A stretch of DNA of 64,000 nt from a virus (IMGVR_UViG_3300027804_000001:192001-256000); one strand, 5' to 3'. Numbered from the stretch's first letter, positions 1,679-53,331 are shown. Made by a program: numbers and translations. Notes: generated by a model not told the origin, from the sequence alone.

Positions 1679-1685
1679 AAAAAAA

Positions 1686-3350: not shown

Positions 3351-3354
3351 TATT

Positions 3355-5088: not shown

Positions 5089-5098
5089 ATTCTTTAAT

Positions 5099-7016: not shown

Positions 7017-7026
7017 AATTGTATTT

Positions 7027-7437
7027 TTATTCCCAACTAATTCCCCAATCTTTAAATTCTGAAGCTAAACAGTCTGTTTTATAATCTTTCCTACCGCCAA
7101 CAATTTCTTGTATTTTATTTTTAGCAGTATTTCTAACACCGTTTAAACCATGTGTTAATTCTAAATTGGTATTTTCAGTTTTACCATACTTTCTGTAGTT
7201 AGATTCATTGTGCCAAATATGTAAATTAGTTTGTGCTAACACAACAATTGCCCTTACGGTATCAGCACTGATTAATTCATCAGTATTTTTTAGAATCAAA
7301 TCTATATCGTGTTTGATATCTCTTATTTCTTGTGCGTATTCCTCTTTATGTTCAGGTATAAACTGTTCTTTTAATTGAGAAATACTTAATCTGTCAACTA
7401 ATTCTGCTAATGTTGGTAGATACTTACGTTCTGACAT
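7027..7437 (-). CDS. Conserved helical hypothetical protein (DUF6165-like)
   Basis: 136 aa. AELVDRLSISQLK, N..IWHNE..YR and NG.RN.AKN.IQ resemble the DUF6165 pattern as I recall it. Confidence 0.45.
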   Translation of the reverse strand: MSERKYLPTLAELVDRLSISQLKEQFIPEHKEEYAQEIRDIKHDIDLILKNTDELISADTVRAIVVLAQTNLHIWHNESNYRKYGKTENTNLELTHGLNGVRNTAKNKIQEIVGGRKDYKTDCLASEFKDWGISWE

Positions 7438-7440
7438 TTT

Positions 7441-29052: not shown

Positions 29053-30476
29053 TTCATTTTGGTATTTATGAACATTGTATTTGGATATAATGTTTCATCT
29101 ATGTTAACAATTTCAGTTACGTCTAAAATCTTATTAAATCCTTCCTCTCTATAATTTATTTTTTGTTGTTGCATTTCGGTAACGAATCTTTTTTCATTTC
29201 TTGCAGTTGTTTCACCTTTCGCCCATTGACCGTTTACATAACCTTCATCCAAATGATGCATACAATCAAACGCACCCTCTCTTCTATATGGTAATATGTT
29301 TTCAATAACATTAATATCTTCTTGAGTATATGTTACATCGCGACTATCACATCCTAAATCTTGTACTAATTCTATTTGACCTTTTGTAAACTCATAATGT
29401 AACTTTAAATTTTGATTCTCGTCTTCATCAAAAATTTTAGTTGCGTCATCAAAAAATTTATTATAAATTTTCACCTCTGAAATTTTACCTTTATAATAAA
29501 CATTTTGATGGTTACAAAATCCCAATAAAAATACTTTAAGAGCGTCGTGTCTTTTTAATTGTCCTTTAATTGGAAATGGTGCATTTACTTTAATACCATT
29601 CATGTTACTTATCAATTCGTTATTCACAAAAAGATACTGTTTTCTTGTTGTGGAATCATAGGAAATAGTAACCCAAGTCCATAAGTTTTCAAATCTTTTT
29701 GCCCAATTATAATAGTGTTGGGTATCCTCGTCAAAACAAACCATTGTAACTGCTCTAGAATTATTAAATGATAATCCCCACGTCCAACTACCATCTTTTC
29801 TAATTAAAGGATATTCAATAAACTTTCTGTCTTTATCTCCAACCAACCATATGGGATTCTTATCATGTTGTTGTTCCGCTTTAAACAAAACCGAAACCGT
29901 ATGATCACCAATTAAAGAACCACTAATTTCTCTGGTTGTTTCTGATGCAAAAACTGATGAAGAACCATTAAAATTTGCAACAATTCTATTTTTATATTTT
30001 TTATATATTCTACCAGTAGTGTAACCTTCATAATAACATCTCCAAAACAAATCATCATCTTCTTGACCCCAATCCCAATAATCATTTGAATAACCATTGG
30101 TTTTTTCTACTTGTTCTTTGTTGAACAACACTACTCCACCAAAGTATTGGTCATAACCCAATCCGTAACTATATTTTGATAACATAGTTGCTATATGTAT
30201 TGGATTTTTGGTTGGATAGGAATAATCACAGGTATCGTCGTGAGGTATCATGTCCACATCGTGCCAAGCAATATAATCACATCCATCTTCAAATGCGTAA
30301 TGTGCTGCAATATTTTTCATTGATCCTCTATTAAAAAGTTTTTCATCTACTTGGTGACCAACATAGAACTTATGTGGAATACCCTGTTTATTTAAATGAT
30401 TTGTTAACTCGGGTATTAATTTTTCAATGTGTTCTTTTCTATTTCTGTATGGTATACAAATTCCTAATTTTTTCAT
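29049..30476 (-). CDS. GT7 (beta-1,4-galactosyltransferase-like) enzyme with an inserted LamG domain
   Basis: IPYRNR, FNRG, WHDVD, YFGGV and NGYSNDYWDWGQEDDD, then a ~210-aa LamG-like insert, then RREGAFDCMHH. Confidence 0.85.
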   Translation of the reverse strand: MKKLGICIPYRNRKEHIEKLIPELTNHLNKQGIPHKFYVGHQVDEKLFNRGSMKNIAAHYAFEDGCDYIAWHDVDMIPHDDTCDYSYPTKNPIHIATMLSKYSYGLGYDQYFGGVVLFNKEQVEKTNGYSNDYWDWGQEDDDLFWRCYYEGYTTGRIYKKYKNRIVANFNGSSSVFASETTREISGSLIGDHTVSVLFKAEQQHDKNPIWLVGDKDRKFIEYPLIRKDGSWTWGLSFNNSRAVTMVCFDEDTQHYYNWAKRFENLWTWVTISYDSTTRKQYLFVNNELISNMNGIKVNAPFPIKGQLKRHDALKVFLLGFCNHQNVYYKGKISEVKIYNKFFDDATKIFDEDENQNLKLHYEFTKGQIELVQDLGCDSRDVTYTQEDINVIENILPYRREGAFDCMHHLDEGYVNGQWAKGETTARNEKRFVTEMQQQKINYREEGFNKILDVTEIVNIDETLYPNTMFINTKMK

Positions 30477-31894
30477 ATTCCAACAATTACGTGGGTTACA
30501 TTTTTATTTTTTACGTGAGAGTGTTCTATAAATTGACAATTGTTTAAACCGTCGTCTTTATAACTAACATTCCCTTTTTTTACTTCATTATAAAATCTTA
30601 ATTGATTGTATCTTGTTAATTTAGTTTTCCAACCATTTAACACATAACCATTTTCTTCGTGTGGAATTAATTGAAATGTTGAATTTCTTCTATATGGGAC
30701 ATCAATTTCTTTTGTTTCTTCATGTGAATAACCAACTATTTCACAATTATAAATTTGACCGTTATTTCCATTACCACTTAAATCCATTAATTTATAACCC
30801 TTAATAAATTTTGCATCGTAATTTAAAATCAATTTATGGTCAGAAACATAGTTACCAAAGTTTTGTGTTAAACCAAAATATTGATTATTTGAAATTTCTC
30901 TTATTTCGTCATCGGAAAGAATATCAGAATACACAGCAAAATTACTAATTGTACCCTTAAAGAATTTTTGGTCATTATTTCTATTTGGGTTTGAACACCC
31001 TAAATAAAATTTATTTTCTTTAGTTATATAATCTCTCAGTCTTTTAATTTTTTTATAGTCAACTACTAATCCATCTTGATAGAGTCTTATCTCTTTTTCG
31101 TATGTGTCAATTGTTATTGCAATGTTTGTTTTGTAATTTGTAACAATATTAGATTCTAAATGAATGATATCATTATTTTCATCGAAAATTTGAAATACAT
31201 ATCTTGAATATGAACTATAACCAATTAAAAAATCATAACCAGGTACACCAAAACAAGCATACATATCGTCATCTCTTTCATGATTCATTTCTATTTCATC
31301 GGGAAAGAAACTAATGAAAATTGTATTTTTATACTTGAAATCAAAAATGTTATTTGACTCTACATAAGAATTTACGCCATTGAATTTAAGGGTAGCAACA
31401 TTCCCACCTTTTTGTTGTATTTCCTTTGTGTTTAAGGGTATTTTCTCTTGTTGACATCTGAATAATAATTCAGTGTCTTCATATCCCCAACCCCAATATT
31501 TGTTTGAATACCCATTAACTTGTTCAAAATATTCAACAGGAAATAAAGTTACCCCACCAAAATATTCATCAAAAACGATTCTTTTGAATTTATATGTGGT
31601 AAGTAATTCTGTTGCCATATGTAAAGGAATGTCATAATAGGAATAGTCGACATCTATCGGTAACATATCAACGTCGTGAAAAACAACATAATCACACCTT
31701 AATTTTTTGGCGTATATGAATCCTATATTTAATAGTTTACCTCTATTAAACGCATTTCCGTTATCTTGTTCAACAACGATTAATTCATATTTAATGTTTT
31801 TATCAGATAGATAGTTTTTTAAATGTGTCTTAAACTGAATTAATTGTGGATATCTGTTTCGATATGGTACAATGATTCCAAGTTTATGAGACAT
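30473..31894 (-). CDS. GT7 (beta-1,4-galactosyltransferase-like) enzyme with an inserted LamG domain
   Basis: VPYRNR, FNRGKLLNIG, FHDVD, YFGGV and NGYSNKYWGWGYED, then a LamG insert (FKGTISNFAVYSDILS), then RRNSTFQLIPH. Confidence 0.88.
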   Translation of the reverse strand: MSHKLGIIVPYRNRYPQLIQFKTHLKNYLSDKNIKYELIVVEQDNGNAFNRGKLLNIGFIYAKKLRCDYVVFHDVDMLPIDVDYSYYDIPLHMATELLTTYKFKRIVFDEYFGGVTLFPVEYFEQVNGYSNKYWGWGYEDTELLFRCQQEKIPLNTKEIQQKGGNVATLKFNGVNSYVESNNIFDFKYKNTIFISFFPDEIEMNHERDDDMYACFGVPGYDFLIGYSSYSRYVFQIFDENNDIIHLESNIVTNYKTNIAITIDTYEKEIRLYQDGLVVDYKKIKRLRDYITKENKFYLGCSNPNRNNDQKFFKGTISNFAVYSDILSDDEIREISNNQYFGLTQNFGNYVSDHKLILNYDAKFIKGYKLMDLSGNGNNGQIYNCEIVGYSHEETKEIDVPYRRNSTFQLIPHEENGYVLNGWKTKLTRYNQLRFYNEVKKGNVSYKDDGLNNCQFIEHSHVKNKNVTHVIVGI

Positions 31895-33739: not shown

Positions 33740-34436
33740 TTAAGTCTTTTATTATTTCGTAAAGTTCTTCATCTTTTTGTAACGGTGTATTTGAAAAAAT
33801 CGAACTCATAGTCATTGTTATTCCTTCACCTGCACCAACTATATCTTTATTTTCTAAAACATCACAGTATTCTTTTATTATCTGTAATTTTTCATAATGT
33901 TTATAGAATTCTTTATAATCATGTTTTTTAAAAACTAAAAAATGTTCCCATATTGTTTCTTTATCCATAAAATCACTGATTTTAGAATTAACATATGCAA
34001 AATACATTTTCCAATCATTTTTAAAAATCAAGTTCATTTCACTTATAGTAAATTTATTAATTCTATGTTTGGATAAATTTTCGATATATGTTATACCATC
34101 TTTAAAATTATAGTTCTTTAGTTTTTTTAAAACTTTAAAGTCGGCATCATATTTCATATCCGCATCTATCACTATTGCAATATCCATATCCAATAATATT
34201 TCTTTTACTAAAAGTATTTTGTCATGATATGATTTTATTTCTTTTTTATAATCAATTACATTAAGTAGAAATGGTGAATATTTTGGATAAAAAAATTCAG
34301 GGTTATCAGTCAAGACATAACACTTATATCCCAACTCCATCAAATTATTTAATTTTCTAACTGTTCCTTTGAAATATTTTTCATCCCCAAAACAAAGAAT
34401 ACCAAATCCTATTTTATTTGTTTGTTCCATAAGCAT
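33726..34436 (-). CDS. Hypothetical protein, putative GT-A-fold glycosyltransferase; paralog of 880..1557
   Basis: YVLTDNPE, SYHDK, VIDAD (DxD), YEKL and GAGEGI motifs. Confidence 0.5.
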   Translation of the reverse strand: MLMEQTNKIGFGILCFGDEKYFKGTVRKLNNLMELGYKCYVLTDNPEFFYPKYSPFLLNVIDYKKEIKSYHDKILLVKEILLDMDIAIVIDADMKYDADFKVLKKLKNYNFKDGITYIENLSKHRINKFTISEMNLIFKNDWKMYFAYVNSKISDFMDKETIWEHFLVFKKHDYKEFYKHYEKLQIIKEYCDVLENKDIVGAGEGITMTMSSIFSNTPLQKDEELYEIIKDLIVYE

Positions 34437-35058
34437 ATAGACCTAAATGTTTTATTTCCACACTTAATAGTGTATCTATATATACCTTGTGTCCTACATC
34501 TCTTAATTTTTTTAAAACATTAAAATCCTCACCTAACCAATCATTTGATTGTTCATTATATATAAACTCAAAATATGGTTTTTGTACTTGATTAAAAATT
34601 TCCGTTTTCATTAATAAACAACCCATCCCAACACCTTCAACTTCTATTAATTCCTCTTCGACTTTTAATGATAGAAAACTGTCCCAATCGCCCACATTCT
34701 TATATGCTACAGGTTTAATAGGATTGGTTCTTTTTAAGTAATTACATCCCACAATATCTTTATTGTGTTCTAAAAGTCTTAAAGCTGTTGTGGATGGAAA
34801 AACCATATCACTATCCAACCATAAAACATAATCTGAATTTATATTTTTTGCCTCCTCTATTAACTTTTCTCTCTGATTTAATAAAATAGTACTCGAGTCA
34901 AAAAATAAATAAGTATCAATTACCTCACTGGTTGTTTTATATAATTGAGTTAAACTATATGCAAAATGTGTATGAACGGATTCTCTTGTTGGAACTAAAA
35001 TTGATAGTTTTTTATTGTTTCCACTCCACAATGACCCGTTATATAAATTCTTTCTCAT
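34414..35058 (-). CDS. GT2-like glycosyltransferase
   Basis: YVLWLDSDMVFP, KDIVG, GVGMGCLL, GEDF and VYIDT....HLG motifs. Confidence 0.75.
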   Translation of the reverse strand: MRKNLYNGSLWSGNNKKLSILVPTRESVHTHFAYSLTQLYKTTSEVIDTYLFFDSSTILLNQREKLIEEAKNINSDYVLWLDSDMVFPSTTALRLLEHNKDIVGCNYLKRTNPIKPVAYKNVGDWDSFLSLKVEEELIEVEGVGMGCLLMKTEIFNQVQKPYFEFIYNEQSNDWLGEDFNVLKKLRDVGHKVYIDTLLSVEIKHLGLYAYGTNK

Positions 35059-35501
35059 AATCCTGGTGTGTTATTTGAAAAACTATCTTCTTGGTTTGAC
35101 ATGTTTTTAGCCAATTTGATTAATTCTTGAATTCTTTTTGAAAATAGTTGGTAGTCTTTTATTGGTAATTGACTTATTAATGAATAAGTTTCTTTAGTAA
35201 ATGTATTTGTGGTTACAATTTCAATCGCACCGATTCTTGCCCATTTCTCAATTAAAGAAATTCTTGAAATATTTTCATTGTTCTCTAAAATACCTCGTAA
35301 CCTTTCTTGATTTAGATTATTTAAAATCTCAACCAAAATTTCTCTTTCTTCTCTTGCATTTTTGGAAAAAAACGAAAGAAATTTAAGTCTTTTGATTCTT
35401 TTAATTAATCTGATTAGTTTTTCCCTATCATGATCAACTCCTGACCATATTATATAGGTTAATTCGTATTTAGATGGAAATGATTTATAACTCAAATTCA
35501 T
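35055..35501 (-). CDS. Hypothetical protein (148 aa)
   Basis: ORF tiles with its neighbours. No recognisable motif. Confidence 0.6.
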   Translation of the reverse strand: MNLSYKSFPSKYELTYIIWSGVDHDREKLIRLIKRIKRLKFLSFFSKNAREEREILVEILNNLNQERLRGILENNENISRISLIEKWARIGAIEIVTTNTFTKETYSLISQLPIKDYQLFSKRIQELIKLAKNMSNQEDSFSNNTPGL

Positions 35502-35850: not shown

Positions 35851-36609
35851 CTATAAACCAAATCTTTTTTTTGTGTTATTATAATTTTGTAAAACTTGAG
35901 TTGAGGTTAAAGCTGTGGAATGTACCATAAGTTGAGCCAATGTACCGTTAAAAACCGAACCATAACTATCCGTACCCACCCCATAACTATCAGAATTACA
36001 CGGTCCCCACATTGTACATATAGCACAAACGGGTCCAGTTGTGTTTGTTATTGTTTTAGTTGCATCAAGTGAACCATTTATATACATTTTCATTGAGGTG
36101 GTTGATTCTTTAACCCACACTAAATTTTTCCAACCTCCTGTATTCACCAATGTTGTTCCTAAATATGTTTGCCACGCACCGTCATAATTCCAATATTCCA
36201 TATATCCATTAACAAGTGTATATGCAATGTTTACCGGACCACCACTACAGTGAGATAAGATACCAACCCTTCCTGTAGTGGTAAATTTACACCATATAGA
36301 TACAGTACAAGTATTTCCCAAATTAAAAGAAGAAAATTTACCCCAGTCATTAGTACCATCGAATACAAATTCGTTATTTTTTCGATTTTTATTATGTGTT
36401 GGGGGGCCGGAAGTAGTTGTAGAATATGTACCACCACCAGAATTATATAAGGTTACGTCTCTTCCGTTTCCACTTAAATCTTTCCATGTTGACCCCGACC
36501 CTGAATATGAGAAACCTCTATCGGAGTCTAAAAATAATTCAATATTTGTTAATACTAAATTATTTAAGTTTTTAATTGAATCAGATTTATTATATGGTCC
36601 TACGTACAT
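35851..36609 (-). CDS. LamG/ConA-like lectin-domain virion protein
   Basis: LD..G.SYSGSG.TWKDLSGNG, FDGTND, W..LVWV, MYING and C-terminal NYNNTKKRFGL. Confidence 0.8.
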   Translation of the reverse strand: MYVGPYNKSDSIKNLNNLVLTNIELFLDSDRGFSYSGSGSTWKDLSGNGRDVTLYNSGGGTYSTTTSGPPTHNKNRKNNEFVFDGTNDWGKFSSFNLGNTCTVSIWCKFTTTGRVGILSHCSGGPVNIAYTLVNGYMEYWNYDGAWQTYLGTTLVNTGGWKNLVWVKESTTSMKMYINGSLDATKTITNTTGPVCAICTMWGPCNSDSYGVGTDSYGSVFNGTLAQLMVHSTALTSTQVLQNYNNTKKRFGL

Positions 36610-36612
36610 GTT

Positions 36613-37305
36613 TTATAAATTAAATCTTTTTTTTGTTGCATTATAATTATTCAAAATTTCGGCGTCTGTCAATGACCTATTATACACTCTAAAAACATAT
36701 AATTTTCCCGACCAACCACTGGCAATTGTTGCTGCGGTTGTTAAATTCCATGTTGATGTTGCAGTTGAGTTTGCACCTGAGCTGACCTGTTCCACCGTAT
36801 TTTTAAACATTTGTCTATATGGTGTGGTATTTGTCCTTACCCTATAAGAAAAATGTCTAATCCCCGCAGTTAAATCAGAATCATTTGCATATTGTATTCT
36901 TTGGGTTACGTTACAACAACCATTAACGTCAAAATAAGTGTTACCATTACTATAGTATAAATGACTAAAAATTGCTCTTGTATCTGAACCAAGACTTGAG
37001 GTTGCTCTCCAATCAAAAAATGTATTCGTTGTTGCAGACGTTGTTTGAACATATGCTTCAATATAACATTCACTTGTAGATGAAAAACCGAACGTGTTAG
37101 AGGCGGGTCCTGTAAAAACACCACCACTACAATCAAAATAACCCGCAGAGTTCCAAGAAATATTTGCACCAAAACTGTAATTCCTATTACCAGTACTTAA
37201 ATCATACCATGTACTCCCTGAACCTGGATATGATCTATTTACACCCGCATCTAAATGTAAAACTAAACCATTTGTTACTATATTAGGTCCACCGTATGCT
37301 CCCAT
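36613..37305 (-). CDS. LamG/ConA-like lectin-domain virion protein
   Basis: GPNIVTNGLVLHLDAG..SYPGSGSTWYDLS and YNRSLTDAEILNNYNATKKRFNL. Confidence 0.8.
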   Translation of the reverse strand: MGAYGGPNIVTNGLVLHLDAGVNRSYPGSGSTWYDLSTGNRNYSFGANISWNSAGYFDCSGGVFTGPASNTFGFSSTSECYIEAYVQTTSATTNTFFDWRATSSLGSDTRAIFSHLYYSNGNTYFDVNGCCNVTQRIQYANDSDLTAGIRHFSYRVRTNTTPYRQMFKNTVEQVSSGANSTATSTWNLTTAATIASGWSGKLYVFRVYNRSLTDAEILNNYNATKKRFNL

Positions 37306-37307
37306 GT

Positions 37308-38009
37308 TTATAAATTAAATCTTTTTTTTGTTGCATTAAAAATTTCACCTACTTGTGTTGATGTTAATGCTCTGTTATACATTAAAACTTTCCCAACTTT
37401 ACCATTTACATAGTACGCATTGATTCCAATATCACCACCGATAGACAAAGCACCTGTGTTATAATAATTTCCACCAGATGGTGTTGTGGTTGCAGTCTCA
37501 TCATAATTGTTTCTTATAATTGTTTGTGTATTATCCGTTCTATTTAAAATTGCAGTAAACATTGCCCACGTATTAAAAGTGTAACCGATAAAACCTGTAT
37601 CTGTTCTACTACTTGCATCGTTACCTATCATAAATCTAACACCACTTGGATTGTTAGCACCAATATAATAACCATTAGAACCACCCGACCTTTTTGCAAT
37701 CCATAAATCCCAACCATCTCCAGCAATTGAAGGGTCTGAATTTACCCAACATATTATTGTAAACGACCCACTATTTGGATTTATAGTTGAACTATTTGTA
37801 ATTGAAATATAATCATCTACACCATCAAATGAAAAAACACCACCATTAGAATTATTAAAGGTTGCACCGTTTGTTAATGTCCCGTTATTACCATTTTTAG
37901 ATATATCATAAACATTATTTCCACTACCGATATAGGATCTATATGACCCAGCATCAATAGATAATACTAATCCGTTTCTTGTAAAATTAGGCCCTCTAAA
38001 AATTCCCAT
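37308..38009 (-). CDS. LamG/ConA-like lectin-domain virion protein
   Basis: GLVLSIDAG, FSFDGVDDYI and YNRALTSTQVGEIFNATKKRFNL. Confidence 0.82.
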   Translation of the reverse strand: MGIFRGPNFTRNGLVLSIDAGSYRSYIGSGNNVYDISKNGNNGTLTNGATFNNSNGGVFSFDGVDDYISITNSSTINPNSGSFTIICWVNSDPSIAGDGWDLWIAKRSGGSNGYYIGANNPSGVRFMIGNDASSRTDTGFIGYTFNTWAMFTAILNRTDNTQTIIRNNYDETATTTPSGGNYYNTGALSIGGDIGINAYYVNGKVGKVLMYNRALTSTQVGEIFNATKKRFNL

Positions 38010-39958
38010 TATTTAATTTTTTGCTCTAACGCCTCGATACGTTTTAATAACTCTTTATTTGTTTCAATTAGTAACGCAACTAATTTTTCATATTTAACAG
38101 CTTTAAATCCATTATTTCTTGTTGTTACAATTTCGGGTAAAACTTTCTCTATTTCTTGAGCAACAACACCAATATCGTGTCCTTCATTTTCATGTATTCC
38201 TTTCATTGGTACCCAATCAAATTCATAACCACTTATTTCGTTTAATTTATCCAATGAACCTTTAATTGGTCTTATATTTGTTTTTAATCTTTCATCAGAA
38301 CCATAATATGCAATTACATCATTTGTGGCTCTTATTAAACCAACAGTTGTTGGTGTTTCGGTTCCAACTCCAAGTGCACCCGAAACATATAGATTTCCGT
38401 CGACATCAACTCTCGCAGATGCGCTTACAGATAAAATTGGTGCACCTGAAATATCACCAACACTAAAAACTGTTCCAAGTAAATCGTCTGTAACCGAAAA
38501 TAATTGACCTTGTGAACCTTGTATATCTACAACAACTGAACCCGATTTATAAATTTCTAATGAACCTGAAATAGACATTACTGTTCCTGTAAATCTTGCA
38601 TTTGATTCAACTGTTACATTTGGTGATGTACTGTTTAATGTTAATAAACCATCATTAAGTGTTCCTGATAATGTTACCGTACCACTACTACCCGATGAAC
38701 CACTACTACCGCTTGAACCCGATGTTCCTGAACTTCCACTACTTCCTGATGTACCACTACTACCAGAACTTCCTGAGGATCCACTTAAACCTGAAGAACC
38801 CGAAGAACCTGATGTTCCACTACTTCCTGATGTACCAGAAGTTCCTGAAGAACCCGATGTACCTGAAGTACCCGAACTACCTGAAGATCCCGAAGAACCT
38901 GAGGTTCCACTAGTTCCTGAAGTACCAGAACTTCCACTAGTTCCACTACTACCACTTGAACCTGAACTACCTGATGATCCACTTGTACCTGAAGTACCCG
39001 AAGAACCATTACTACCACTACTACCACTTGTACCAGAAGAACCTGAGCTTCCTGATGTTCCACTACTTCCACTTGTACCTGAAGTACCACTAGAACCTGA
39101 TGTTCCACTTGTACCATTTATACCTGACGTACCACTTGAACCACTACTACCGTTACTTCCTGATGTTCCACTTGTTCCTGAACTTCCACTAGTACCTGAA
39201 GTACCTCTAGTTCCTGAACTACCAGATGTTCCTGAGGAACCACTTGAACCTGATGTACCGCTAGAACCTGATGTACCAGAACTTCCGCTTGAGCCAGAAG
39301 AACCAGATGTTCCTGAAGAACCTGAAGTACCAGAACTTCCTGATGTTCCGCTGGTACCAGATGAACCATTACTACCACTTGTTCCACTTGTACCAGATGA
39401 ACCATTACTACCACTTGTACCAGATGAACCATTACTACCACTTGTACCAGATGTTCCTGAACTTCCAGAAGAACCTGATGTTCCCGAACTACCACTACTT
39501 CCACTTGTACCTGAAGTACCACTAGTTCCTGAAGTACCTCTAGTTCCTGAACTACCAGATGTTCCTGATGAACCTGAACTACCAGATGTTCCTGATGAAC
39601 CAGAACTTCCTGAAGAACCTGATGTTCCCGATGTTCCACTACTACCACTAGTACCTGAACTTCCAGAAGAACCTGATGTACCACTAGTACCTGAAGTACC
39701 CGATGTCGCAGCCGCAAAAGTGGTACCATTTAACACTAAACTACCAGTAACTCTTAATGAACCTGTGAAATCATGACTATCATCACTTGAATTACCAAAC
39801 TTTGTTGAACCACTGCTAAATGATGCGGTTTGATATATTACCGAAGATGAAATTATGTATTGTTGTGCGACGAGATTACCCTGTATATTTAAATCTCCTG
39901 AGATGTCCGCCGAGCCTGATACAATCAGACCATTTTTGACTTTAAATTCGTTTGCCAT
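38009..39958 (-). CDS. Tail-fibre-like protein with a ~340-aa Gly-(S/T)-S repeat and a C-terminal Peptidase S74 autocleaving chaperone
   Basis: YYGSDERLKTNI...GVVAQE...YEKLVALLIE..KEL (S74 domain). The triplet repeat is visible directly. Confidence 0.88.
   Translation of the reverse strand: MANEFKVKNGLIVSGSADISGDLNIQGNLVAQQYIISSSVIYQTASFSSGSTKFGNSSDDSHDFTGSLRVTGSLVLNGTTFAAATSGTSGTSGTSGSSGSSGTSGSSGTSGTSGSSGSSGSSGTSGSSGSSGTSGSSGTRGTSGTSGTSGTSGSSGSSGTSGSSGSSGTSGTSGSNGSSGTSGSNGSSGTSGTSGSNGSSGTSGTSGSSGTSGSSGTSGSSGSSGSSGTSGSSGTSGSSGSSGTSGSSGTRGTSGTSGSSGTSGTSGSNGSSGSSGTSGINGTSGTSGSSGTSGTSGSSGTSGSSGSSGTSGSSGSNGSSGTSGTSGSSGSSGSSGSSGTSGSSGTSGTSGTSGSSGSSGSSGTSGTSGSSGTSGTSGSSGTSGSSGSSGLSGSSGSSGSSGTSGSSGSSGTSGSSGSSGSSGSSGTVTLSGTLNDGLLTLNSTSPNVTVESNARFTGTVMSISGSLEIYKSGSVVVDIQGSQGQLFSVTDDLLGTVFSVGDISGAPILSVSASARVDVDGNLYVSGALGVGTETPTTVGLIRATNDVIAYYGSDERLKTNIRPIKGSLDKLNEISGYEFDWVPMKGIHENEGHDIGVVAQEIEKVLPEIVTTRNNGFKAVKYEKLVALLIETNKELLKRIEALEQKIK
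38681..39711 (-). repeat. Gly-X-Y coding repeat (GTS/GSS), synonymously diverged
   Basis: About 110 consecutive triplets with no Pro. Codon choice varies, so this is not an exact DNA tandem repeat. Confidence 0.95.
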
Positions 39959-40005
39959 TTATTCAAATTAGTTTCATTATCCACTAATGGTGTTTATGTG
40001 TTTAC

Positions 40006-40013
40006 TATAAATA
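40006..40013 (-). promoter_or_regulatory. Putative late-promoter motif (sense TATTTATA)
   Basis: 48 nt upstream of the 39958 start, just downstream of a terminator. Confidence 0.55.
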
Positions 40014-40034
40014 CTAAATCAAAGATTATAAAAT

Positions 40035-40059
40035 AAAAAAGGGGAGAATAAATCTCCCC
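40035..40059 (-). terminator. Intrinsic terminator
   Basis: Minus strand GGGGAGA-TTTAT-TCTCCCC followed by T6, downstream of the 40082 stop. Confidence 0.85.
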
Positions 40060-40081
40060 TTTCATCTAATTTATTTTTATC

Positions 40082-43000
40082 TTATATTGACAACGCTCTT
40101 GCGAACATAACTACACTCCATGTTCCTGATGATGATGTTGCCGTAACCGTTCCACTATTGGAAATTGTAAACGATATTGCTGATGTGTTACCTAAGTCAG
40201 TAGTTGTGGTTTCTGTTAATTTAGATGTTGAACCATCCCATATACCTACAATACTACCTGCTCTCATATTAGAACCATTTTTCACTAAGTAATCAAGAAC
40301 TACACCATTGTAACTTGATAATGTAAACATTGTTGATGATGTACTTACAGATTGATTACTTGTTTGAACATCTACTTTACCATTCATCAAGATATCACCT
40401 GTTAATGATAATGTTGATCCACTAAATGTTAAATTGGTTTCAACCGTTGCATTTGTTCCACTACCATCATATGTTATAACACCATTGTTTGTTGAACCTG
40501 TTAATGTTACAAGTCCTGATGTACCTGATGTACCTGCTGTACCACTTGAACCGCTTGTTCCTGAAGAACCACTTGAACCGCTTGAACCTGAAGTACCAGA
40601 TGTTCCACTTGTACCAGATGAACCCGAAGTACCTGATGTTCCAGAACTTCCTGATGTTCCACTACTTCCTGAAGAACCACTTGTACCAGCAGTTCCTGAT
40701 GAACCTGAACTTCCTGATGTTCCACTACTTCCACTAGTACCTGAACTACCCGATGTTCCTGATGTTCCAGAACTTCCTGAAGAACCAGATGAACCTGATG
40801 AACCTGAGCTACCTGATGAACCAGAAGTTCCCGAAGTACCTGATGAACCAGAAGAACCTGAACTACCACTTGTTCCTGAACTACCAGAAGAACCTGAGCT
40901 TCCTGATGTTCCACTACTTCCACTTGTTCCTGAACTACCACTTGTACCGGCTGTTCCTGAAGAACCACTTGTACCAGCCGTTCCTGAACTACCTGAAGTA
41001 CCTGAGGTTCCACTTGTTCCTGATGAACCAGATGAACCCGATGTACCAGAACTTCCTGATGAACCAGATGTACCCGATGAACCACTTGTACCAGCGGTTC
41101 CTGATGAACCACTTGAACCAGATGTACCCGAAGTACCTGATGAACCACCACCACCTTCACCGAGTGTAACCGCAACTAAACCTGCTTGTGGTGATGAAAA
41201 TCCTATTTCAATATTATATAAGTCAATCGCTTCAATTGTCTGTGGTATAATTGAAAAACCATTTGTATCATAAACTTGTACAACAGGATATTTTGCACCT
41301 AAATCGTGTTGGAATGACCATGTTGTTGAAGGTGAGTTAACGGTTAATGAATTATATGCTCCCACAGTTGTACTACCTGAGCTACCGCTTGTTCCTGAAG
41401 AACCCGATGTACCAGATGTACCTGCAGTACCACTACTTCCTGAAGAACCACTAGAACCTGAAGTTCCACTTGTTCCACTACTTCCTGAACTACCACTAGA
41501 ACCTGAAGTACCTGATGTACCTGAGGTACCACTACTTCCCGAACTACCACTAGAACCTGATGTTCCTGAGGACCCTGAAGTACCAGATGTTCCACTTGTT
41601 CCTGAAGAACCAGATGAACCTGATGTACCACTAGAACCTGATGTACCACTTGAACCAGATGTACCCGAAGTACCTGATGTTCCACTTGTACCATCTGCAC
41701 CTGTAGCACCATCTAAGTTAATTGACCAAGATGAATACGTACCACTACCGATTGTTCCATTTGCATCAGGTGCAGAGAATGTTAATGTTGTACCACTATA
41801 ACTTACTACGTCTGATTCTTGATAATTGTTTACATTATAAGCAATGATGATTGATTGTCCAACTGAGTAACTTAATCCCGTAGGAACTGTAACTGAACCA
41901 CCTTGTCCTAATGTATGTGTTGAATTCGATGTTGTTTTATAAACTTCTGAAGTACCTGAAGTACCTGATGTACCAGCTGTTCCTGAAGAACCACTTGTAC
42001 CCGAAGAACCCGAAGAACCTGATGTTCCAGAAGTTCCTGAACTTCCTGATGAACCACTAGAACCTGATGTTCCTGATGTACCAGATGAACCAGAACTTCC
42101 TGAACTACCACTTGTACCTGAAGTACCCGCAGTTCCAGAACTTCCTGATGAACCACTAGAACCCGAAGTACCACTACTTCCACTTGTTCCTGAACTTCCA
42201 GATGAACCCGAACTTCCACTCGTTCCTGAAGAACCAGATGTACCACTTGTACCGGCAGTTCCACTACTTCCTGAAGAACCTGAACTTCCGCTTGTTCCTG
42301 AAGAACCGGATGTACCTGAACTTCCTGAAGAACCACTAGAACCTGATGTTCCACTTGTTCCACTACTTCCTGAACTACCACTAGAACCACTTGTACCGGC
42401 TGTTCCTGAAGAACCACTTGTACCAGATGTTCCACTACTTCCCGATGTTCCCGCAGTTCCTGAACTACCTGAAGTTCCAGATGTACCAGAAGAACCTGAT
42501 GAACCCGATGTACCCGCAGTTCCAGAACTTCCTGAAGAACCACTAGAACCTGATGTACCAGATGTTCCTGATGAACCACTTGTTCCTGAAGATCCACTTG
42601 AACCTGATGTACCAGATGTACCCGCAGTTCCACTACTACCACTACTTCCACTTGAACCTGAAGTACCAGATGTTCCTGATGAACCACTAGAACCACTTGA
42701 ACCTGAAGTACCACTTGTACCAGATGTACCTGAAGTACCATCAGCACCCGTAGCACCATCTAAGTTAATAACCCAATTAGAATATGTACCGCTACCAATT
42801 GTACCGTTAGCATCTGGAGTATCAACTGTTATTGTTGTTCCACTATATGAAACCACATGAGACTCTTGATAATTGTTGACATCATACGCTATGATAATAG
42901 ACTGACCAACAGTGTAACTTAATCCACTTGGTACAGTAAATGACCCCGAATTACCTAATGTATGTGTGGTTGTTGATATTGTTTTATAAACTTCCGAAGT

Positions 43001-45166
43001 ACCTGATGTACCCGATGTACCCGCAGTTCCACTACTTCCTGATGAACCCGAAGAACCTGATGTACCTGATGTTCCACTTGTACCAGCGGTTCCTGATGAA
43101 CCACTAGAACCTGAAGTACCTGACGTACCACTACTTCCTGATGAACCACTAGAACCCGAAGTACCAGAAGAACCTGACGTACCTGATGAACCAGAACTTC
43201 CTGAAGAACCACTTGTACCAGATGTACCACTTGTTCCTGAAGAACCCGAACTTCCTGAAGAACCAGATGTTCCACTTGTACCAGATGAGCCATCACTACC
43301 ACTAGTTCCTGAAGTACCAGATGTACCAGATGAACCTGAGGTACCAGATGTTCCTGATGAACCACTAGAACCTGATGTTCCTGAAGTACCTGAACTTCCT
43401 GAAGTACCAGATGAACCACTAGAACCTGAAGTTCCACTTGTTCCACTACTTCCTGAACTACCACTAGAACCACTTGTTCCTGAGGTACCAGATGAACCCG
43501 AGGTACCAGATGAACCTGATGTACCTGAACTTCCAGATGTTCCACTTGTACCACTTGAACCACTTGAACCCGAACTTCCGCTTGTACCAGATGTTCCGCT
43601 TGAACCCGAGGTACCGGACGAACCAGAACTTCCTGAAGAACCACTTGTACCAGATGTACCAGCCGTTCCCGAACTTCCTGAAGATCCACTAGAACCTGAT
43701 GTTCCTGAAGTTCCAGAACTTCCAGATGTACCTGAAGAACCATCTGCACCTGTTGCACCATCTAAATTGATAGTCCATGATGAATATGTACCACTACCAA
43801 TAGTACCATTAGAATCTGGTGCTGTAAACGTTAAAGTAGTACCACTATATGATACTACATCCGATTCTTGGTAGTTATTTACGTTATATGCTATTATAAT
43901 TGATTGACCAACGGTATAACTTAAACCACTCGGTACAGTTAATGAACCCGCTTGTCCTAAAGTAAATGTATCTGTTGATGTTGTTTTATAGACCTCTGAG
44001 GTACCTGATGAACCACTTGTACCAGCTGTTCCTGATGAACCACTCGTTCCCGAACTTCCTGAACTACCACTAGAACCCGATGTACCTGAAGTACCAGATG
44101 TTCCACTTGTTCCTGAACTTCCTGAACTACCACTAGAACCTGAAGTACCTGAAGTACCTGAAGTACCACTACTTCCACTTGTTCCTGCTGTTCCCGAACT
44201 TCCTGATGAACCACTAGAACCTGATGTTCCTGATGTTCCACTTGTACCACTTGAACCATCACTACCACTGGTTCCCGAACTTCCTGATGAACCACTAGAA
44301 CCTGATGTTCCTGATGTACCACTAGAACCTGATGTTCCTGAACTACCAGATGTACCCGCAGTACCACTTGTTCCTGAAGAACCGGATGTACCTGAACTTC
44401 CTGAAGATCCACTAGAACCAGAAGAACCTGATGTTCCTGAAGTACCGGCAGTACCTGAACTTCCTGAAGATCCACTTGTACCTGATGTACCAGAACTACC
44501 GCTTGTACCTGAAGTGCCTGAACTTCCTGATGTACCACTAGAACCTGAGGTACCAGCTGTTCCTGATGAACCACTAGAACCTGATGTTCCTGATGAACCA
44601 TTACTTCCCGAAGAACCACTTGAACCAGAACTACCACTTGTACCTGAAGTACCTGAGCTTCCCGATGTACCAGATGAACCTGATGTTCCTGACGTACCCG
44701 AAGTTCCAGATGAACCACTAGTACCACTAGAACCACTTGAACCCGAAGTACCTGAACTTCCTGAAGAACCAGATGTACCTGATGATCCACTTGTTCCTGA
44801 TGTACCACTAGAACCTGATGTTCCTGAAGTACCCGATGTTGCAGCCGTATATTCAGTACCATTTATTGATAACGAACCTGTAACTGAAAAAGAACCAGTA
44901 AATTGATGTGTATCGTCTAAACTATCACCAAATTTTGTGGAACCAGAAGAAAATGACGTTGTAATATAACTTACAGAAGATGAGACTATAAATTGATTGG
45001 CGGACAAATTACCACCAACAACTAAATCACCACTAATATTTTGACTACCTGAAACATTTAATGAACCTGTTACACTTAACGATCCAGATATTTGTGAGGA
45101 GCCTGTTATATTTGCTCCACCCTGGTCAACAATTAGACCATTTTTTACTATAAATTGATTTGCCAT
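40082..45166 (-). CDS. Giant (1694 aa) Gly-(S/T)-S repeat fibre protein with interspersed globular modules
   Basis: N-terminus paralogous to 38009..39958 and C-terminus paralogous to 45254..47482. Contains three 86-aa inserts and one ~75-aa HDLG..YP module. Confidence 0.88.
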   Translation of the reverse strand: MANQFIVKNGLIVDQGGANITGSSQISGSLSVTGSLNVSGSQNISGDLVVGGNLSANQFIVSSSVSYITTSFSSGSTKFGDSLDDTHQFTGSFSVTGSLSINGTEYTAATSGTSGTSGSSGTSGTSGSSGTSGSSGSSGTSGSSGSSGTSGSSGTSGTSGTSGSSGTSGSSGTSGTSGSSGSSGSSGSNGSSGTSGSSGSSGTAGTSGSSGTSGSSGTSGTSGSSGTSGTSGSSGSSGTAGTSGTSGSSGSSGSSGSSGTSGSSGTSGTAGTSGSSGTSGSSGTSGTSGSSGSSGSSGTSGSDGSSGTSGTSGTSGSSGSSGSSGTAGTSGSSGTSGTSGTSGSSGSSGSSGTSGTSGTSGTSGSSGSSGSSGTSGSSGTAGTSGSSGTSEVYKTTSTDTFTLGQAGSLTVPSGLSYTVGQSIIIAYNVNNYQESDVVSYSGTTLTFTAPDSNGTIGSGTYSSWTINLDGATGADGSSGTSGSSGTSGTSGSSGSSGSSGTAGTSGTSGSSGSSGSSGTSGSSGTSGTSGSSGSSGSSGTSGTSGSSGTSGSSGTSGSSGTSGTSGSSGSSGSSGTSGTSGSSGSSGTSGSSGTSGTSGSSGSSGTSGTSGSSGTSGTSGTSGSDGSSGTSGTSGSSGSSGSSGTSGTSGTSGSSGSSGSSGTSGSSGTSGSSGSSGSSGTSGTSGSSGSSGTAGTSGTSGTSGSSGSSGSSGTAGTSGTSGTSEVYKTISTTTHTLGNSGSFTVPSGLSYTVGQSIIIAYDVNNYQESHVVSYSGTTITVDTPDANGTIGSGTYSNWVINLDGATGADGTSGTSGTSGTSGSSGSSGSSGTSGTSGSSGSSGSSGTAGTSGTSGSSGSSGTSGSSGTSGTSGSSGSSGSSGTAGTSGSSGSSGTSGTSGSSGTAGTSGSSGTSGTSGSSGTAGTSGSSGSSGSSGTSGTSGSSGSSGSSGTSGSSGTSGSSGSSGSSGTAGTSGTSGSSGTSGSSGSSGSSGTSGSSGTSGSSGSSGSSGTAGTSGTSGSSGSSGSSGTSGTSGSSGSSGSSGTSGTSGSSGSSGTSGSSGTAGTSGTSGTSEVYKTTSNSTHTLGQGGSVTVPTGLSYSVGQSIIIAYNVNNYQESDVVSYSGTTLTFSAPDANGTIGSGTYSSWSINLDGATGADGTSGTSGTSGTSGSSGTSGSSGTSGSSGSSGTSGTSGTSGSSGTSGSSGSSGSSGTSGTSGTSGSSGSSGSSGTSGTSGSSGSSGSSGTAGTSGTSGSSGTSGSSGSTTVGAYNSLTVNSPSTTWSFQHDLGAKYPVVQVYDTNGFSIIPQTIEAIDLYNIEIGFSSPQAGLVAVTLGEGGGGSSGTSGTSGSSGSSGTAGTSGSSGTSGSSGSSGTSGSSGSSGTSGTSGTSGSSGTAGTSGSSGTAGTSGSSGTSGSSGTSGSSGSSGSSGTSGSSGSSGSSGTSGTSGSSGSSGSSGSSGSSGSSGTSGTSGSSGTSGSSGTSGSSGSSGTAGTSGSSGSSGTSGSSGTSGTSGSSGTSGTSGTSGSSGSSGSSGTSGSSGTAGTSGTSGLVTLTGSTNNGVITYDGSGTNATVETNLTFSGSTLSLTGDILMNGKVDVQTSNQSVSTSSTMFTLSSYNGVVLDYLVKNGSNMRAGSIVGIWDGSTSKLTETTTTDLGNTSAISFTISNSGTVTATSSSGTWSVVMFARALSI
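40514..44840 (-). repeat. Gly-X-Y coding repeat (GTS/GSS/GTA), interrupted four times
   Basis: Visible directly in the translation. Confidence 0.95.
41690..43996 (-). repeat. Three copies of a 258-bp (86-aa) module at 43739-43996, 42737-42994 and 41690-41947
   Basis: EVYKTT...GLSY(T/S)VGQSIIIAY(N/D)VNNYQES(D/H)VVSYSGTT...GSGTYS(S/N)W.INLDGATGADG occurs three times at identical length. Confidence 0.95.
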
Positions 45167-45200
45167 TTCTTCTTCTTTGTTTTTATTACACTAAGTCTTT

Positions 45201-45208
45201 TATAAATA
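45201..45208 (-). promoter_or_regulatory. Putative late-promoter motif (sense TATTTATA, followed by AAAGACTT)
   Basis: 35 nt upstream of the 45166 start. Confidence 0.55.
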
Positions 45209-45253
45209 TTTCATTATTCGATTAGTTTATTACTTTTGATAAAAAACTTTTTA

Positions 45254-47482
45254 TTATAAAAATGTCGTCATTGACTTGAATGTCCAATTCGCACTTGCGT
45301 TTACTTTCAATTCAACATGACCTTCATTTGAAACCGTTACATCAAAAGATGCATCACTTGTATCTCCAATATCTGCCGTTGTTGTTTCATTAAAATTTAC
45401 ACTATTATTATTCCACACCGCAACAACTATACCCGCTCTCGCATTTGAATTATCATAAATTGTATAATTGTAAAACGCTGACGTGTATGAACCCGTTAAT
45501 GTTGACACTACAGTATTAGAACCTGGTGAAACATTTGACAATGAATTTTTTAGTTGTGCGTTGGTAACATCAATACTACCTGTAACAATTAATGATCCTG
45601 ATATGGTTGTATCATTACCTATTGTTACTATAGTTCCTGTATCAACAATAGATGAGTTTGTAACACCTGTTGCCGATTCAAATTTGACAACAGTATTTAC
45701 ATTACCATTAATTGAAACTGATGTTCCACTTGTTCCTGAAGTACCCCCACTTCCACTAGTTCCAGATGTTCCACTAGAACCTGATGTACCCGAAGTTCCA
45801 GATGATCCACTACTACCGCTAGTACCACTTGTGCCTGATGTTCCTGAAGTTCCTGCTGAACCTGAAGTACCACTACTACCACTTGTGCCCGATGTTCCTG
45901 AAGTACCGGCTGAACCCGATGTTCCACTACTACCGCTAGTACCCGAAGAACCAGAACTTCCACTTGTTCCCGAAGTACCAGAACTTCCACTTGTTCCCGA
46001 AGTACCGGCTGAACCTGATGTTCCACTACTACCAGATGAACCACTACTACCACTTGTACCAGCAGTGCCACTACTACCACTTGTACCGGCAGTACCACTA
46101 CTACCACTAGTACCTGATGAACCACCACCACCTTCACCGAGTGTTGCAACTACAATACCCGCAATTGGTTGTGAAAATGTAATTGTTGCATTGTATAAAT
46201 CAACCGCTAAAATCTCTTGAGGTATAACTTGGTAACCATATTCATCAAATACTTGAAATACGGGATATCTTGCACCTAAATCATGATTAAAATACCACAC
46301 GTCTGACGGTGTTGTAACCGTCATTGATTCATAAGCACCTACTGTTGTACTACCTGAAGAACCCGAACTACCTGATGTTCCACTAGTTCCTGAAGTACCA
46401 CTACTTCCTGAACTACCTGAAGTACCTGAGGTTCCACTAGTTCCCGATGTACCACTAGTACCGGCAGTACCACTACTACCACTTGTACCCGAAGTACCGG
46501 ATGAACCATTACCACCAATCGTTGCAATTACTGTACCTGCTGTTGGTAATGCAAAATAAACATCTAAATTATTTGCATCTAATACTTTAATTTCAGTTGG
46601 GATGATGACCCTATCACTGTTATCAAAAACATTAATTGCTGGATATTTGTAATCTAAATTGTGATTAAAAGACCATGTTGTTTGTTGTGAACTCACAACA
46701 AGTGTTCTTGTCATACCCGAAACAGGGTATGCAGAATCAACATAATTTACTAAAGAGGCCGATAATGCCGATACATTGAATGTTACTTCTTTAATGTAAC
46801 CGTTATCATTTGTATCAACCATTGATGTGGTGATTTCTAAACCACCTTCACCGATAAATTCAACAACATCTGAACCTGTTGCTCTAACTAAATCCTGACC
46901 TTCAACAAATATATCTCTAAAGTGTGAACCAATAGAAACAAATGCGGTACCATCAAAAGATTCACTAACATTTAATCCCGTACTATCGTCAAATTGTAAT
47001 TTGGTAAATTGTTTATCATATGTATTACCATCAACATCAGAACCTGAAATATGAAATGGTACATTTGTTAAACCTAAACCACTACCTGTAAATTCTGTTG
47101 CAGTAATTGAACCTGTTACAGATAAATTTACATTAACTTGTAAACCATCTTCATCAATAGATGCGGTCGCATTACCACTTGCAATTTGAGATAAGTTTAA
47201 TCCTGTGATACCACTTGCCGGAATATTATAAAGACCTTGTCCATCACCTATGAATGAACCCGTAAAAAATGATGCTGTTACATTATCTGTTAGATAAATT
47301 GAACCTGTATTAACCGTGTTTGTTGCAACTAATTCTTGTATTGAAGGACCTAACGCACCTGAAACCGCAAAAAATACTTTACCGTCAGTAGTATTAATTG
47401 ATAATTCCCCTAGTTGTAGATTAGCGTTGGTCGGTTTCCTACCCGATACAGCGCTCCTACGTAGCTTTACTATTTGTGCCAT
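45254..47482 (-). CDS. Tail-fibre-like protein with an Mtd_N-like N-terminus and Gly-(S/T)-S repeats
   Basis: MAQIVKLRRS..PT...LQLGELSINT.DGK.F, two HNL/HDL..YP modules and G-X-S repeats. Confidence 0.82.
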   Translation of the reverse strand: MAQIVKLRRSAVSGRKPTNANLQLGELSINTTDGKVFFAVSGALGPSIQELVATNTVNTGSIYLTDNVTASFFTGSFIGDGQGLYNIPASGITGLNLSQIASGNATASIDEDGLQVNVNLSVTGSITATEFTGSGLGLTNVPFHISGSDVDGNTYDKQFTKLQFDDSTGLNVSESFDGTAFVSIGSHFRDIFVEGQDLVRATGSDVVEFIGEGGLEITTSMVDTNDNGYIKEVTFNVSALSASLVNYVDSAYPVSGMTRTLVVSSQQTTWSFNHNLDYKYPAINVFDNSDRVIIPTEIKVLDANNLDVYFALPTAGTVIATIGGNGSSGTSGTSGSSGTAGTSGTSGTSGTSGTSGSSGSSGTSGTSGTSGSSGSSGSTTVGAYESMTVTTPSDVWYFNHDLGARYPVFQVFDEYGYQVIPQEILAVDLYNATITFSQPIAGIVVATLGEGGGGSSGTSGSSGTAGTSGSSGTAGTSGSSGSSGSSGTSGSAGTSGTSGSSGTSGTSGSSGSSGTSGSSGTSGSAGTSGTSGTSGSSGTSGSAGTSGTSGTSGTSGSSGSSGTSGTSGSSGTSGTSGSGGTSGTSGTSVSINGNVNTVVKFESATGVTNSSIVDTGTIVTIGNDTTISGSLIVTGSIDVTNAQLKNSLSNVSPGSNTVVSTLTGSYTSAFYNYTIYDNSNARAGIVVAVWNNNSVNFNETTTADIGDTSDASFDVTVSNEGHVELKVNASANWTFKSMTTFL

Positions 47483-52806: not shown

Positions 52807-53331
52807 TTATATTTTTTCTATTTGACGCAAAGTTAATTCAACCGGAGTTACTCTACCAAAAATTTTCACTTCTAATGAAACTTTTTCACCGTTTATACTT
52901 GAAATAATTCCTTCAAACGTAGTGAATGGACCATCATTGATTCTAATTGATTCACCAATTGTATATTGATACTTCATGGTTGTGTTATACTCATCTAAAA
53001 TTTCATCTTTTAGAATACGTTTTATATCTGTATCTTTTAACTTAATTGGTGTTCTATCTCCCATCATTCCCATCAAACCATTCATACCTGATACGAATTT
53101 TAAATCTTCTTTGGTCAATAATTTTTCCGATTCAAAATAAAGATATCCAGTATAAAGGACCTTTTCTCTTACGATTTTTTTATTCTTTACAATTTTTAAT
53201 TCCTTTTCGGTTGGACACAGGAACCTATTAATACCTTTTAACTTTCCTTGTGTTATTTGTTTGTTGTATTCTTCTTTTAATGTTCTTTCTTTACCGGGTA
53301 AAACTTTTACCACGTACCAATGTGATTCCAT
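52807..53331 (-). CDS. nusG: Transcription elongation/antitermination factor NusG
   Basis: NGN domain WYVVKV.PGKE...GYLY and KOW domain GE.IRI.DGPF..FEG...EVKIFGRVTPVEL. Confidence 0.92.
   Translation of the reverse strand: MESHWYVVKVLPGKERTLKEEYNKQITQGKLKGINRFLCPTEKELKIVKNKKIVREKVLYTGYLYFESEKLLTKEDLKFVSGMNGLMGMMGDRTPIKLKDTDIKRILKDEILDEYNTTMKYQYTIGESIRINDGPFTTFEGIISSINGEKVSLEVKIFGRVTPVELTLRQIEKI

Follow-up and report, generated by a model that had tools for sequence, protein, structure and literature searches.

The 64,000-nucleotide stretch analysed here (the window; IMGVR_UViG_3300027804_000001:192001-256000) belongs to an uncultured jumbo phage from fresh water and carries, on its minus strand, three adjacent open reading frames (ORFs) with long Gly-X-Y repeats. 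Their products, P0001 (649 amino acids, aa), P0002 (1694 aa) and P0003 (742 aa), agree in translation with those of the initial annotation, which had been made from the sequence alone. The strict periodicity that it described over about 340, 1100 and 190 residues was borne out: a script run on the translations counted 114, 378 and 65 uninterrupted triplets in P0001, P0002 and P0003, giving collagen-type totals of 342, 1134 and 195 residues. Glycine occupies the first triplet position in 557 of 557 cases. Position X is Ser or Thr in 545 of the 557 triplets (Thr alone in 277), and position Y is Ser in 505, Ala in 27 and Thr in 4; the triplet types are GSS, GTS and, less often, GTA. The 1114 X and Y positions hold no proline, no lysine and seven charged residues (~0.6%), matching the lack of proline and near absence of charge reported earlier.

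At the DNA level, a pattern of six consecutive Gly-(Ser/Thr-type)-(Ser/Thr-type) triplets matched 306 times in the window, every time on the minus strand, and never in 100 dinucleotide-preserving shuffles. The Pfam Collagen profile (PF01391) matches all three proteins with E values of 1e-49 to 1e-149 and scores of 166, 486 and 82 bits for P0001, P0002 and P0003, against a cut-off of 27.2. The definition of collagen-like proteins asks for a minimum of 6-8 triplets in an uninterrupted (Gly-X-Y)n; the individual runs here span 19 to 114. The PHROG matches are to collagen-like tail-fibre families. The place, size and composition of the repeats given in the initial annotation are therefore confirmed.

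P0001 ends in an S74 intramolecular chaperone. Pfam Peptidase_S74 (PF13884) matches residues 554-611 (E 4e-17; 62.6 bits against a cut-off of 22), and the SDxRLK motif expected from the initial annotation is present as SDERLK at 554-559. Here a serine is followed five residues on by a lysine (S554-D-E-R-L-K559), as it is in a homologue that is 79% identical in this region, and the chaperone should cut itself off at Ser554. The C-terminal 230 residues of P0001 are similar to two solved fibre chains and to the tips of tail fibres from many cultured phages. The best match to this C terminus, the tail fibre of S-SRM01, was rejected as a counterpart because it has no Gly-X-Y repeat.

ESMFold2 assembled three copies of P0001 residues 369-649 with a score of 0.93, the best of three controls scoring 0.00. 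In a calibration based on two copies, whereas P0001 was modelled with three, a score of 0.93 was attained by 21 of 30 same-chain pairs with solved structures and by none of 23 proteins solved as single chains. The confident predicted interface covers residues 426-648. This model supports a homotrimeric fibre and is silent on the helix itself: the S74-ended trimer proposed earlier, with structure prediction as a check, is supported for the C-terminal 220 residues, modelled as a homotrimer, while the Gly-X-Y part was not confidently placed.

P0002 has three 79-aa inserts set 85-93 triplets apart. As proteins the inserts share 80-87% identity, but at third codon positions only ~50%, which marks them as old and conserved nodes. 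With a small alignment, the node models as a beta-barrel (pLDDT 90.6). A BFVD structure comparison gave many matches of this barrel to uncultured-phage proteins labelled 'Collagen triple helix repeat', and a search of solved structures gave nothing at E <= 0.001. The node also lies between Gly-Thr-Ser runs in an uncultured 735-kb phage, LR756501. The P0002 C-terminal head gave a low-confidence beta-sandwich in a single-sequence AlphaFold2 model (pLDDT 57), and the N-terminal adaptor of P0003 (~40 aa) is widely shared. Judged from their sequences, the three fibre proteins are mosaics with modules in common (Table 1), and P0001 and P0002 probably have a common attachment site, given the identity of their N-terminal domains.

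Table 1. Fibre genes, their parts and neighbouring features, with positions counted from the first letter of the window.
Feature	Position	Strand	Remarks
Terminator-like hairpin upstream of P0003 gene	47582..47609	-	12 pairs + T run
P0003 gene, 742 aa	45254..47482	-	~40-aa N-terminal adaptor, two 70-aa modules, two runs, head
P0003 run 1, aa 323-379	46346..46516	-	19 triplets
P0003 run 2, aa 451-588	45719..46132	-	46 triplets
P0002 gene, 1694 aa	40082..45166	-	five Gly-X-Y runs (378 triplets) between small globular modules
P0002 run 1, aa 112-390	43997..44833	-	93 triplets
P0002 beta-barrel node 1, aa 391-469	43760..43996	-	79 aa; model, pLDDT 90.6
P0002 run 2, aa 470-724	42995..43759	-	85 triplets
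P0002 beta-barrel node 2, aa 725-803	42758..42994	-	79 aa
P0002 run 3, aa 804-1073	41948..42757	-	90 triplets
P0002 beta-barrel node 3, aa 1074-1152	41711..41947	-	79 aa
P0002 run 4, aa 1153-1266	41369..41710	-	38 triplets
P0002 71-aa module, aa 1267-1337	41156..41368	-	61% and 42% identical to two P0003 copies
P0002 run 5, aa 1338-1553	40508..41155	-	72 triplets
P0002 C-terminal head, aa 1554-1694	40085..40507	-	36% identical to P0003 head
Terminator-like hairpin between P0002 and P0001 genes	40037..40063	-	11 pairs + T run
P0001 gene, 649 aa	38009..39958	-	N-terminal attachment domain, 114 triplets, beta-rich tip, S74; ORF, Pfam
P0001 N-terminal domain, aa 1-86	39701..39958	-	57% identical to P0002 N terminus
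P0001 Gly-(S/T)-S run, aa 87-428	38675..39700	-	114 triplets, 342 aa, 0 Pro; script
P0001 non-collagen shaft and tip, aa 429-553	38300..38674	-	within confident predicted trimer interface; model
P0001 S74 chaperone domain, aa 554-649	38012..38299	-	Ser554/Lys559 dyad, SDERLK
Three tandem ConA/LamG-like lectin-fold genes	35851..38009	-	233, 230, 252 aa; profile matches
148-aa protein gene	35055..35501	-	elsewhere between S74 fibre gene and Anp1-like GT gene
Anp1/Mnn9-like GT-A glycosyltransferase, 214 aa	34414..35058	-	
Two GT7N/GT7C-type glycosyltransferases with LamG-like domains	29049..31894	-	6-9 kb downstream on coding strand

Selection on the repeat and its distribution

The codons of the repeat are mixed. 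Gly is encoded by GGT (64%) and GGA (35%), Ser by TCA, AGT, TCT and TCG, with both the TCN and the AGY boxes in use, and Thr by ACA and ACT; these proportions equal the background ratios of the genome, as represented by 14 other genes of the window. Tandem Repeats Finder reported only degenerate copies, matching at ~60-80% for most arrays. Background codon usage and imperfect copies together rule out fresh DNA slippage of the microsatellite kind: codons scrambled to this extent indicate that the repeat is old and under selection. By the evidence of its codons, the repeat has synonymous sites at equilibrium (saturated) while Gly stays fixed, and there is strong purifying selection on every third residue.

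Selection also distinguishes the two remaining positions. Thr is one base change away from Ser at X or Y, yet it fills half of the X positions and 4 of 557 Y positions. That Thr is allowed at X and nearly excluded from Y points to a structure in which X and Y have different surroundings, and purifying selection of this position-specific kind argues against a linker defined by composition alone.

The same type of repeat is present in related phage contigs of 100-335 kb. The N-terminal part of P0003 finds 30 IMG/VR loci, some of them on contigs of 316-324 kb, and all loci covering the fibre genes encode equally proline-free Gly-(S/T)-S proteins, their N-terminal domains being 41-75% identical. 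One 324-kb contig (IMGVR_UViG_3300033074_000580) has a second Gly-(S/T)-S cluster at ~240-242 kb, ~40 kb from the main one. A further example is in LR756501, where a 2816-aa ORF contains 2334 repeat residues with runs of 903 and 1272. This ORF (L032:6349-14796 in LR756501.1) is built of Gly-(Thr/Ser)-Ser with only two short breaks in its 2334 repeat residues, and its stalk would reach ~670 nm if helical; the preceding ORF, of 2104 aa, adds 363 further repeat residues.

At least 1543 clusters at E <= 1e-10 emerged from a search of 5.8 billion proteins. Of the best metagenomic homologues with Gly-X-Y runs, 100 of 114 are proline-free, and none of the metagenomic homologues has an informative name in any source. 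Among 50,697 phage records, tblastn with the 742-aa protein found no cultured counterpart, and blastn with the repeat DNA gave LR756501 as the only true match to phage records. Matches to Erwinia and Microcystis phages were false, the opposite strand encoding Pro-Glu-Val repeats. Our literature search found no paper on proline-free, Ser/Thr-only phage collagens.

Environmental libraries add to this distribution. In two freshwater DNA metagenomes, summed contig depth was ~600-8100 on the repeats (38644-46700) and 4-19 on the unique flanks, a difference of several hundredfold, which indicates that similar repeat DNA of other organisms or phages is very abundant in those samples. Two freshwater metatranscriptome libraries hold contigs identical to non-repeat parts of the fibre genes, and expression of these genes is possible on that basis.

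A collagen-type reading of the stalks

We consider it reasonably probable that P0001, P0002 and P0003 are homotrimeric collagen-like virion fibres for host recognition, with helices held by length, node anchoring and hydration. Host-recognition (tail) fibres are the most likely role. This reading starts from the observed periodicity, selection, domain architecture and conservation across phages, together with the predicted C-terminal trimer; from the sequences we infer the triple helix, the location on the virion and any glycosylation.

In this arrangement, the globular parts would bring three chains together in register: the shared N-terminal domains, the 79-aa nodes, the C-terminal heads and, in P0001, the S74 chaperone. 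The Gly-(Ser/Thr)-Ser stretches would form collagen-type triple helices and thereby long, thin spacers without charge. With the rise typical of collagen, the spacer lengths would be ~100, 325 and 55 nm in P0001, P0002 and P0003, the value for P0002 being 1134 residues at ~0.29 nm each. Such helices could be stabilised by their length, by the nodes, which would anchor the chains and restore their register, by hydration through hydroxyl groups and by the coldness of lake water. A further contribution might possibly come from O-linked sugars that the adjacent phage-encoded enzymes would attach in the host cytoplasm.

Several points weigh against such a helix or its place on the virion. In the host-guest peptides of Persikov et al., Ser and Thr reportedly have below-average triple-helix propensities. 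The trimer model did not confidently place the Gly-X-Y residues that it included (369-425; 19 triplets). No baseplate or tail gene that would fix the attachment of the fibres was identified within the 64-kb window, and the metatranscriptome contigs could be DNA carry-over. None of the known stabilising residues (Pro/Hyp, Lys-Gly-Asp/Glu triplets) occurs across the 557 triplets. A 2025 survey proposed Lys-Gly-Asp/Glu salt bridges as a universal folding code, KGD making up 13% of viral triplets (PMC11923368); the present repeats fall outside this rule because they have no Lys at all, and the KGE and KGD salt-bridge triplets are accordingly absent. For the proline-free repeat of the bacterial protein Bucl8, discussed below, the authors quote 33 °C for GAS and 47 °C for POG (PMC7682875).

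Adjacent sugar genes and rival explanations

The fibre genes are followed on the same strand by a sugar-synthesis and glycosyltransferase (GT) island of ~35 kb. The order is three LamG-type genes, the 148-aa gene, the Anp1-like GT-A gene, a methyltransferase, a GT2 and two GT7 genes, continuing with radical SAM enzymes and then sugar-nucleotide enzymes. The two galactosyltransferase-like GT7 genes announced in the initial annotation 6-9 kb downstream are indeed there, as GT7N/GT7C enzymes at 29049-31894. The first lectin-fold gene overlaps the P0001 stop codon by one base, and P0001 may head a unit that runs on into the lectin and sugar genes, given the hairpin at 40037-40063. This hairpin and the one upstream of P0003, both strong, have similar G-rich stems (AAGGGGGAGAG and GAAAGGGGAGA) and bracket the P0003 and P0002 gene pair. 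Upstream of the fibre region lie genes for a NusG-like protein (52807-53331), a Dam methylase (53358-54194) and a sigma-70 family protein (62318-63127), which are signs of phage-encoded transcription control.

The island bears on the first rival explanation, in which phage enzymes attach O-linked sugars densely to Ser and Thr and the triple helix needs these sugars to form or to last. We regard this dependence as unlikely. Spelled out, it would amount to a phage 'glyco-collagen', an imino-acid- and salt-bridge-free helix of hundreds of triplets that is nucleated by S74, re-registered at the nodes and dependent, for its stability or its function, on dense O-glycosylation of Ser/Thr, a proposal to which we give equally little credence. 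The same doubt attaches to its enzymology, in which the Anp1-like GT-A would glycosylate the chains in the bacterial cytoplasm, the lectin-bearing GT7 enzymes would extend the sugars, and the proposed universal folding code would be broken. The position of the ~35-kb island directly after the fibre genes speaks for dependence, as does the constraint on X (Ser/Thr) and Y (Ser), which is maintained through both Ser codon boxes and exceeds the needs of a helix.

The GT7 genes count on both sides. The fibre-then-GT7 order is retained in related contigs of 104-324 kb, and a Gly-X-Y ORF lies at most 10 kb upstream of GT7 in 20 of 65 GT7 loci. However, three complete GT7-bearing jumbo genomes (276, 245 and 199 kb) gave no match to the six-triplet repeat pattern, which returned 31-1133 matches in positive controls, and LR756501, whose fibre has 778 triplets, has no GT7N. 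GT7 and repeats thus occur separately in both directions, which weakens the interpretation of the initial annotation. In GT7 genomes without the repeat, fibres of 1160-1770 aa with Ser-rich, non-collagen repeats (L077:899-4468, L094:2014-5604, L088:1946-5428, L073:387-5699) take the equivalent place upstream of the methyltransferase-GT2-GT7 block. These repeats consist of SSS runs with hydrophobic spacers and reach 63% Ser+Thr over 60 aa. The island may serve Ser/Thr-rich fibres generally, or a common gene order may merely have been inherited.

The Anp1-like enzyme is more tightly linked to S74 fibres. The neighbourhoods of two metagenomic homologues combine a collagen fibre ending in S74 with genes for a 147-aa protein and an Anp1-like GT-A, flanked by further GTs; identities to the window copies are 51% for the small protein, 68% for the GT-A and 79% for the S74 region. 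The enzyme has 417 IMG/VR relatives. Among the best 80 of these, 56 loci have enough upstream DNA, and in 36 of the 56 an S74-motif fibre ends 0.7-1.1 kb upstream of the Anp1-like gene. The cassette of S74 fibre, 148-aa protein and GT-A (34414-35501; L105-L108, L110-L124) holds with or without Gly-X-Y in the fibre. Within the group of at least 61% identity to the window enzyme, 10 of 11 such fibres have proline-free Gly-X-Y runs. The enzyme is missing from the three complete repeat-less genomes and present in one complete genome with repeats, a pattern that favours dependence. Against it, a 97%-complete 324-kb contig has repeats and no Anp1-like enzyme, and LR756501 has only a very weak, distant match (E 7e-4), ~500 kb from its fibre genes. 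Judged by this linkage, the strongest candidate for a fibre-directed transferase among the enzymes tested is the Anp1-like GT-A, not GT7. No single GT accompanies every such fibre.

In favour of dependence, too, (Gly-Pro-Thr)10 with no galactose on its Thr is a coil according to work cited in PMC11923368, and O-glycosylation of mycobacteriophage virions is a precedent as cited in PMC12619734 (Freeman et al. 2023). On the other hand, Thr stands at X here, whereas the acceptor is at Y in Riftia and BclA. The analogy with the Riftia worm collagen drawn in the initial annotation is therefore inexact: the glycosylated Thr is at Y there, while the present repeats have Thr at X in 277 of 557 triplets and at Y in 4. 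The premise that imino-acid-free helices have to be rescued also goes too far, because the proline-free (GAS)n of Bucl8 shows a helix signal in circular dichroism (CD) without sugars (PMC7682875). The GT genes could moreover act elsewhere, for instance on the capsid, on DNA or on the host surface. The weaker claim, that the collagen-like fibres favoured above are decorated with sugars at all, is plausible, and we put it slightly short of an even chance.

A more specific sugar route was considered and rejected. The GT7 copy at 30473-31894 has beta4GalT7 as its best solved relative (E 7.5e-30), an enzyme that places Gal on the Xyl-O-Ser of the proteoglycan linker. A proteoglycan-type linker here, made by a UDP-xylose route and a beta4GalT7-like enzyme acting on Xyl-O-Ser, failed for lack of a clear UDP-xylose synthase: the neighbouring SDR enzyme matches UDP-GlcA epimerases and other dehydratase types and is not clearly such a synthase. 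The window also has a UDP-glucose dehydrogenase gene at 17808-18974.

A somewhat less likely rival than glycosylation dependence is that the repeats are flexible tethers: disordered soluble linkers or, if glycosylated, mucin- or serine-rich repeat protein (SRRP)-like brushes, stringing trimeric nodes together like 'fishing line'. Gly-Ser-rich sequence is the classic flexible linker, the structure model shows no confident contacts in the repeat, and the low triple-helix propensity and lack of known stabilisers fit such a state. But a linker needs composition and not register, and Gly is invariant in all 557 triplets despite the saturated synonymous sites. Tolerance of Thr at X but not at Y is equally unexpected of a tether, and runs as long as 1272 residues persist in distant phages, where 2334 repeat residues contain just two short breaks. 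The repeats are, in addition, always flanked by domains expected to hold three parallel chains. Register and X/Y asymmetry weaken the tether reading. Finally, a polyglycine-II-type bundle or sheet, which the initial annotation had offered as an alternative, is very improbable: Gly at every third residue and small side chains would suit it, but in known bundles (snow-flea antifreeze protein, the phage S16 gp38 adhesin) Gly makes up about half of the residues and turns connect short helices, whereas here Gly is exactly one third (33%) and runs of up to 342 residues (1272 in the relative) have no turn-like breaks.

Significance and comparison with known systems

The class is ordinary in its architecture, and unusual and unstudied in its chemistry. 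In collagen research, a stable triple helix is held to need imino acids, charge pairs or glycosylated Thr, and these stalks are without all of them; yet the class is very common in freshwater viromes and keeps its Gly over hundreds of triplets. If the stalks are triple-helical, they represent a new minimal solution for the fold and offer protein engineering a simple, uncharged rod of tunable length. If sugars are needed, the stalks would be the first case of glycosylated collagen-like fibres in a bacterial virus, and if the stalks are not helical, their strict periodicity calls for another explanation. Fibres of 100-330 nm would also be relevant to host finding by large phages in dilute water, where hosts are scarce.

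Serine-rich repeat glycoproteins of Gram-positive bacteria have long Ser-rich repeats, are glycosylated in the cytoplasm by adjacently encoded GTs and form surface fibrils. They differ from the present proteins in having Ser-X dipeptides without Gly periodicity, in being monomeric and in using accessory Sec export, none of which we find here. Hydroxyl-rich Gly-X-Y repeats with GT genes nearby also occur in the glycosylated collagens, namely Riftia cuticle collagen, Bacillus anthracis BclA, C. difficile BclA3/SgtA and the Mimivirus collagen/L230 system, where a role of sugars in stabilising or decorating the helix has been proposed or demonstrated. These collagens are rich in Pro and accept sugar on Thr at Y (or on hydroxylysine); the present repeats have Ser at Y, Thr at X and no Pro. 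The GT families differ as well, being GT7-like and Anp1/GT62-like here.

Collagen-like fibres of phages have long been known (PMC1079782, PMC3368898). Phage and prophage examples (EPclA, P-SSM2, PHROG 5073, 6320, 8745 and 1806) likewise join a collagen-type stalk to non-collagen trimerising domains and are encoded within tail-fibre gene clusters. Their stalks are Pro-rich and/or charged, unlike the present ones, which have no Pro, ~0.6% charged residues and far greater length. EPclA of an E. coli O157:H7 prophage (PMC3368898) is described as Pro-rich, with ~22% charged residues. In orf023 and orf028 of cyanophage P-SSM2 (PMC1079782), Pro is the commonest X residue (45 and 56 times), and these 'collagen' fibres were set aside as counterparts because they are Pro-rich and of a different type. 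The S74 chaperone of P0001 agrees with the endosialidase-type chaperones (PF13884) in profile, in its Ser-x4-Lys, in its C-terminal position and in the predicted trimer. Studied members assemble a triple beta-helix or beta-prism, whereas this one comes ~125 residues after a collagen-type repeat.

There is a chemical likeness to Bucl8 of Burkholderia pseudomallei, a trimeric protein whose proline-free, uncharged, small-residue Gly-X-Ser repeat, (Gly-Ala-Ser)n, gives a weak triple-helix CD signal that is gone at 50 °C and fits a marginally stable helix (PMC7682875). Bucl8 is an outer-membrane efflux protein with 6-38 triplets and Ala at X. The phage fibres carry 65-378 triplets per chain with Ser or Thr at X, and add the nodes and the S74 chaperone.

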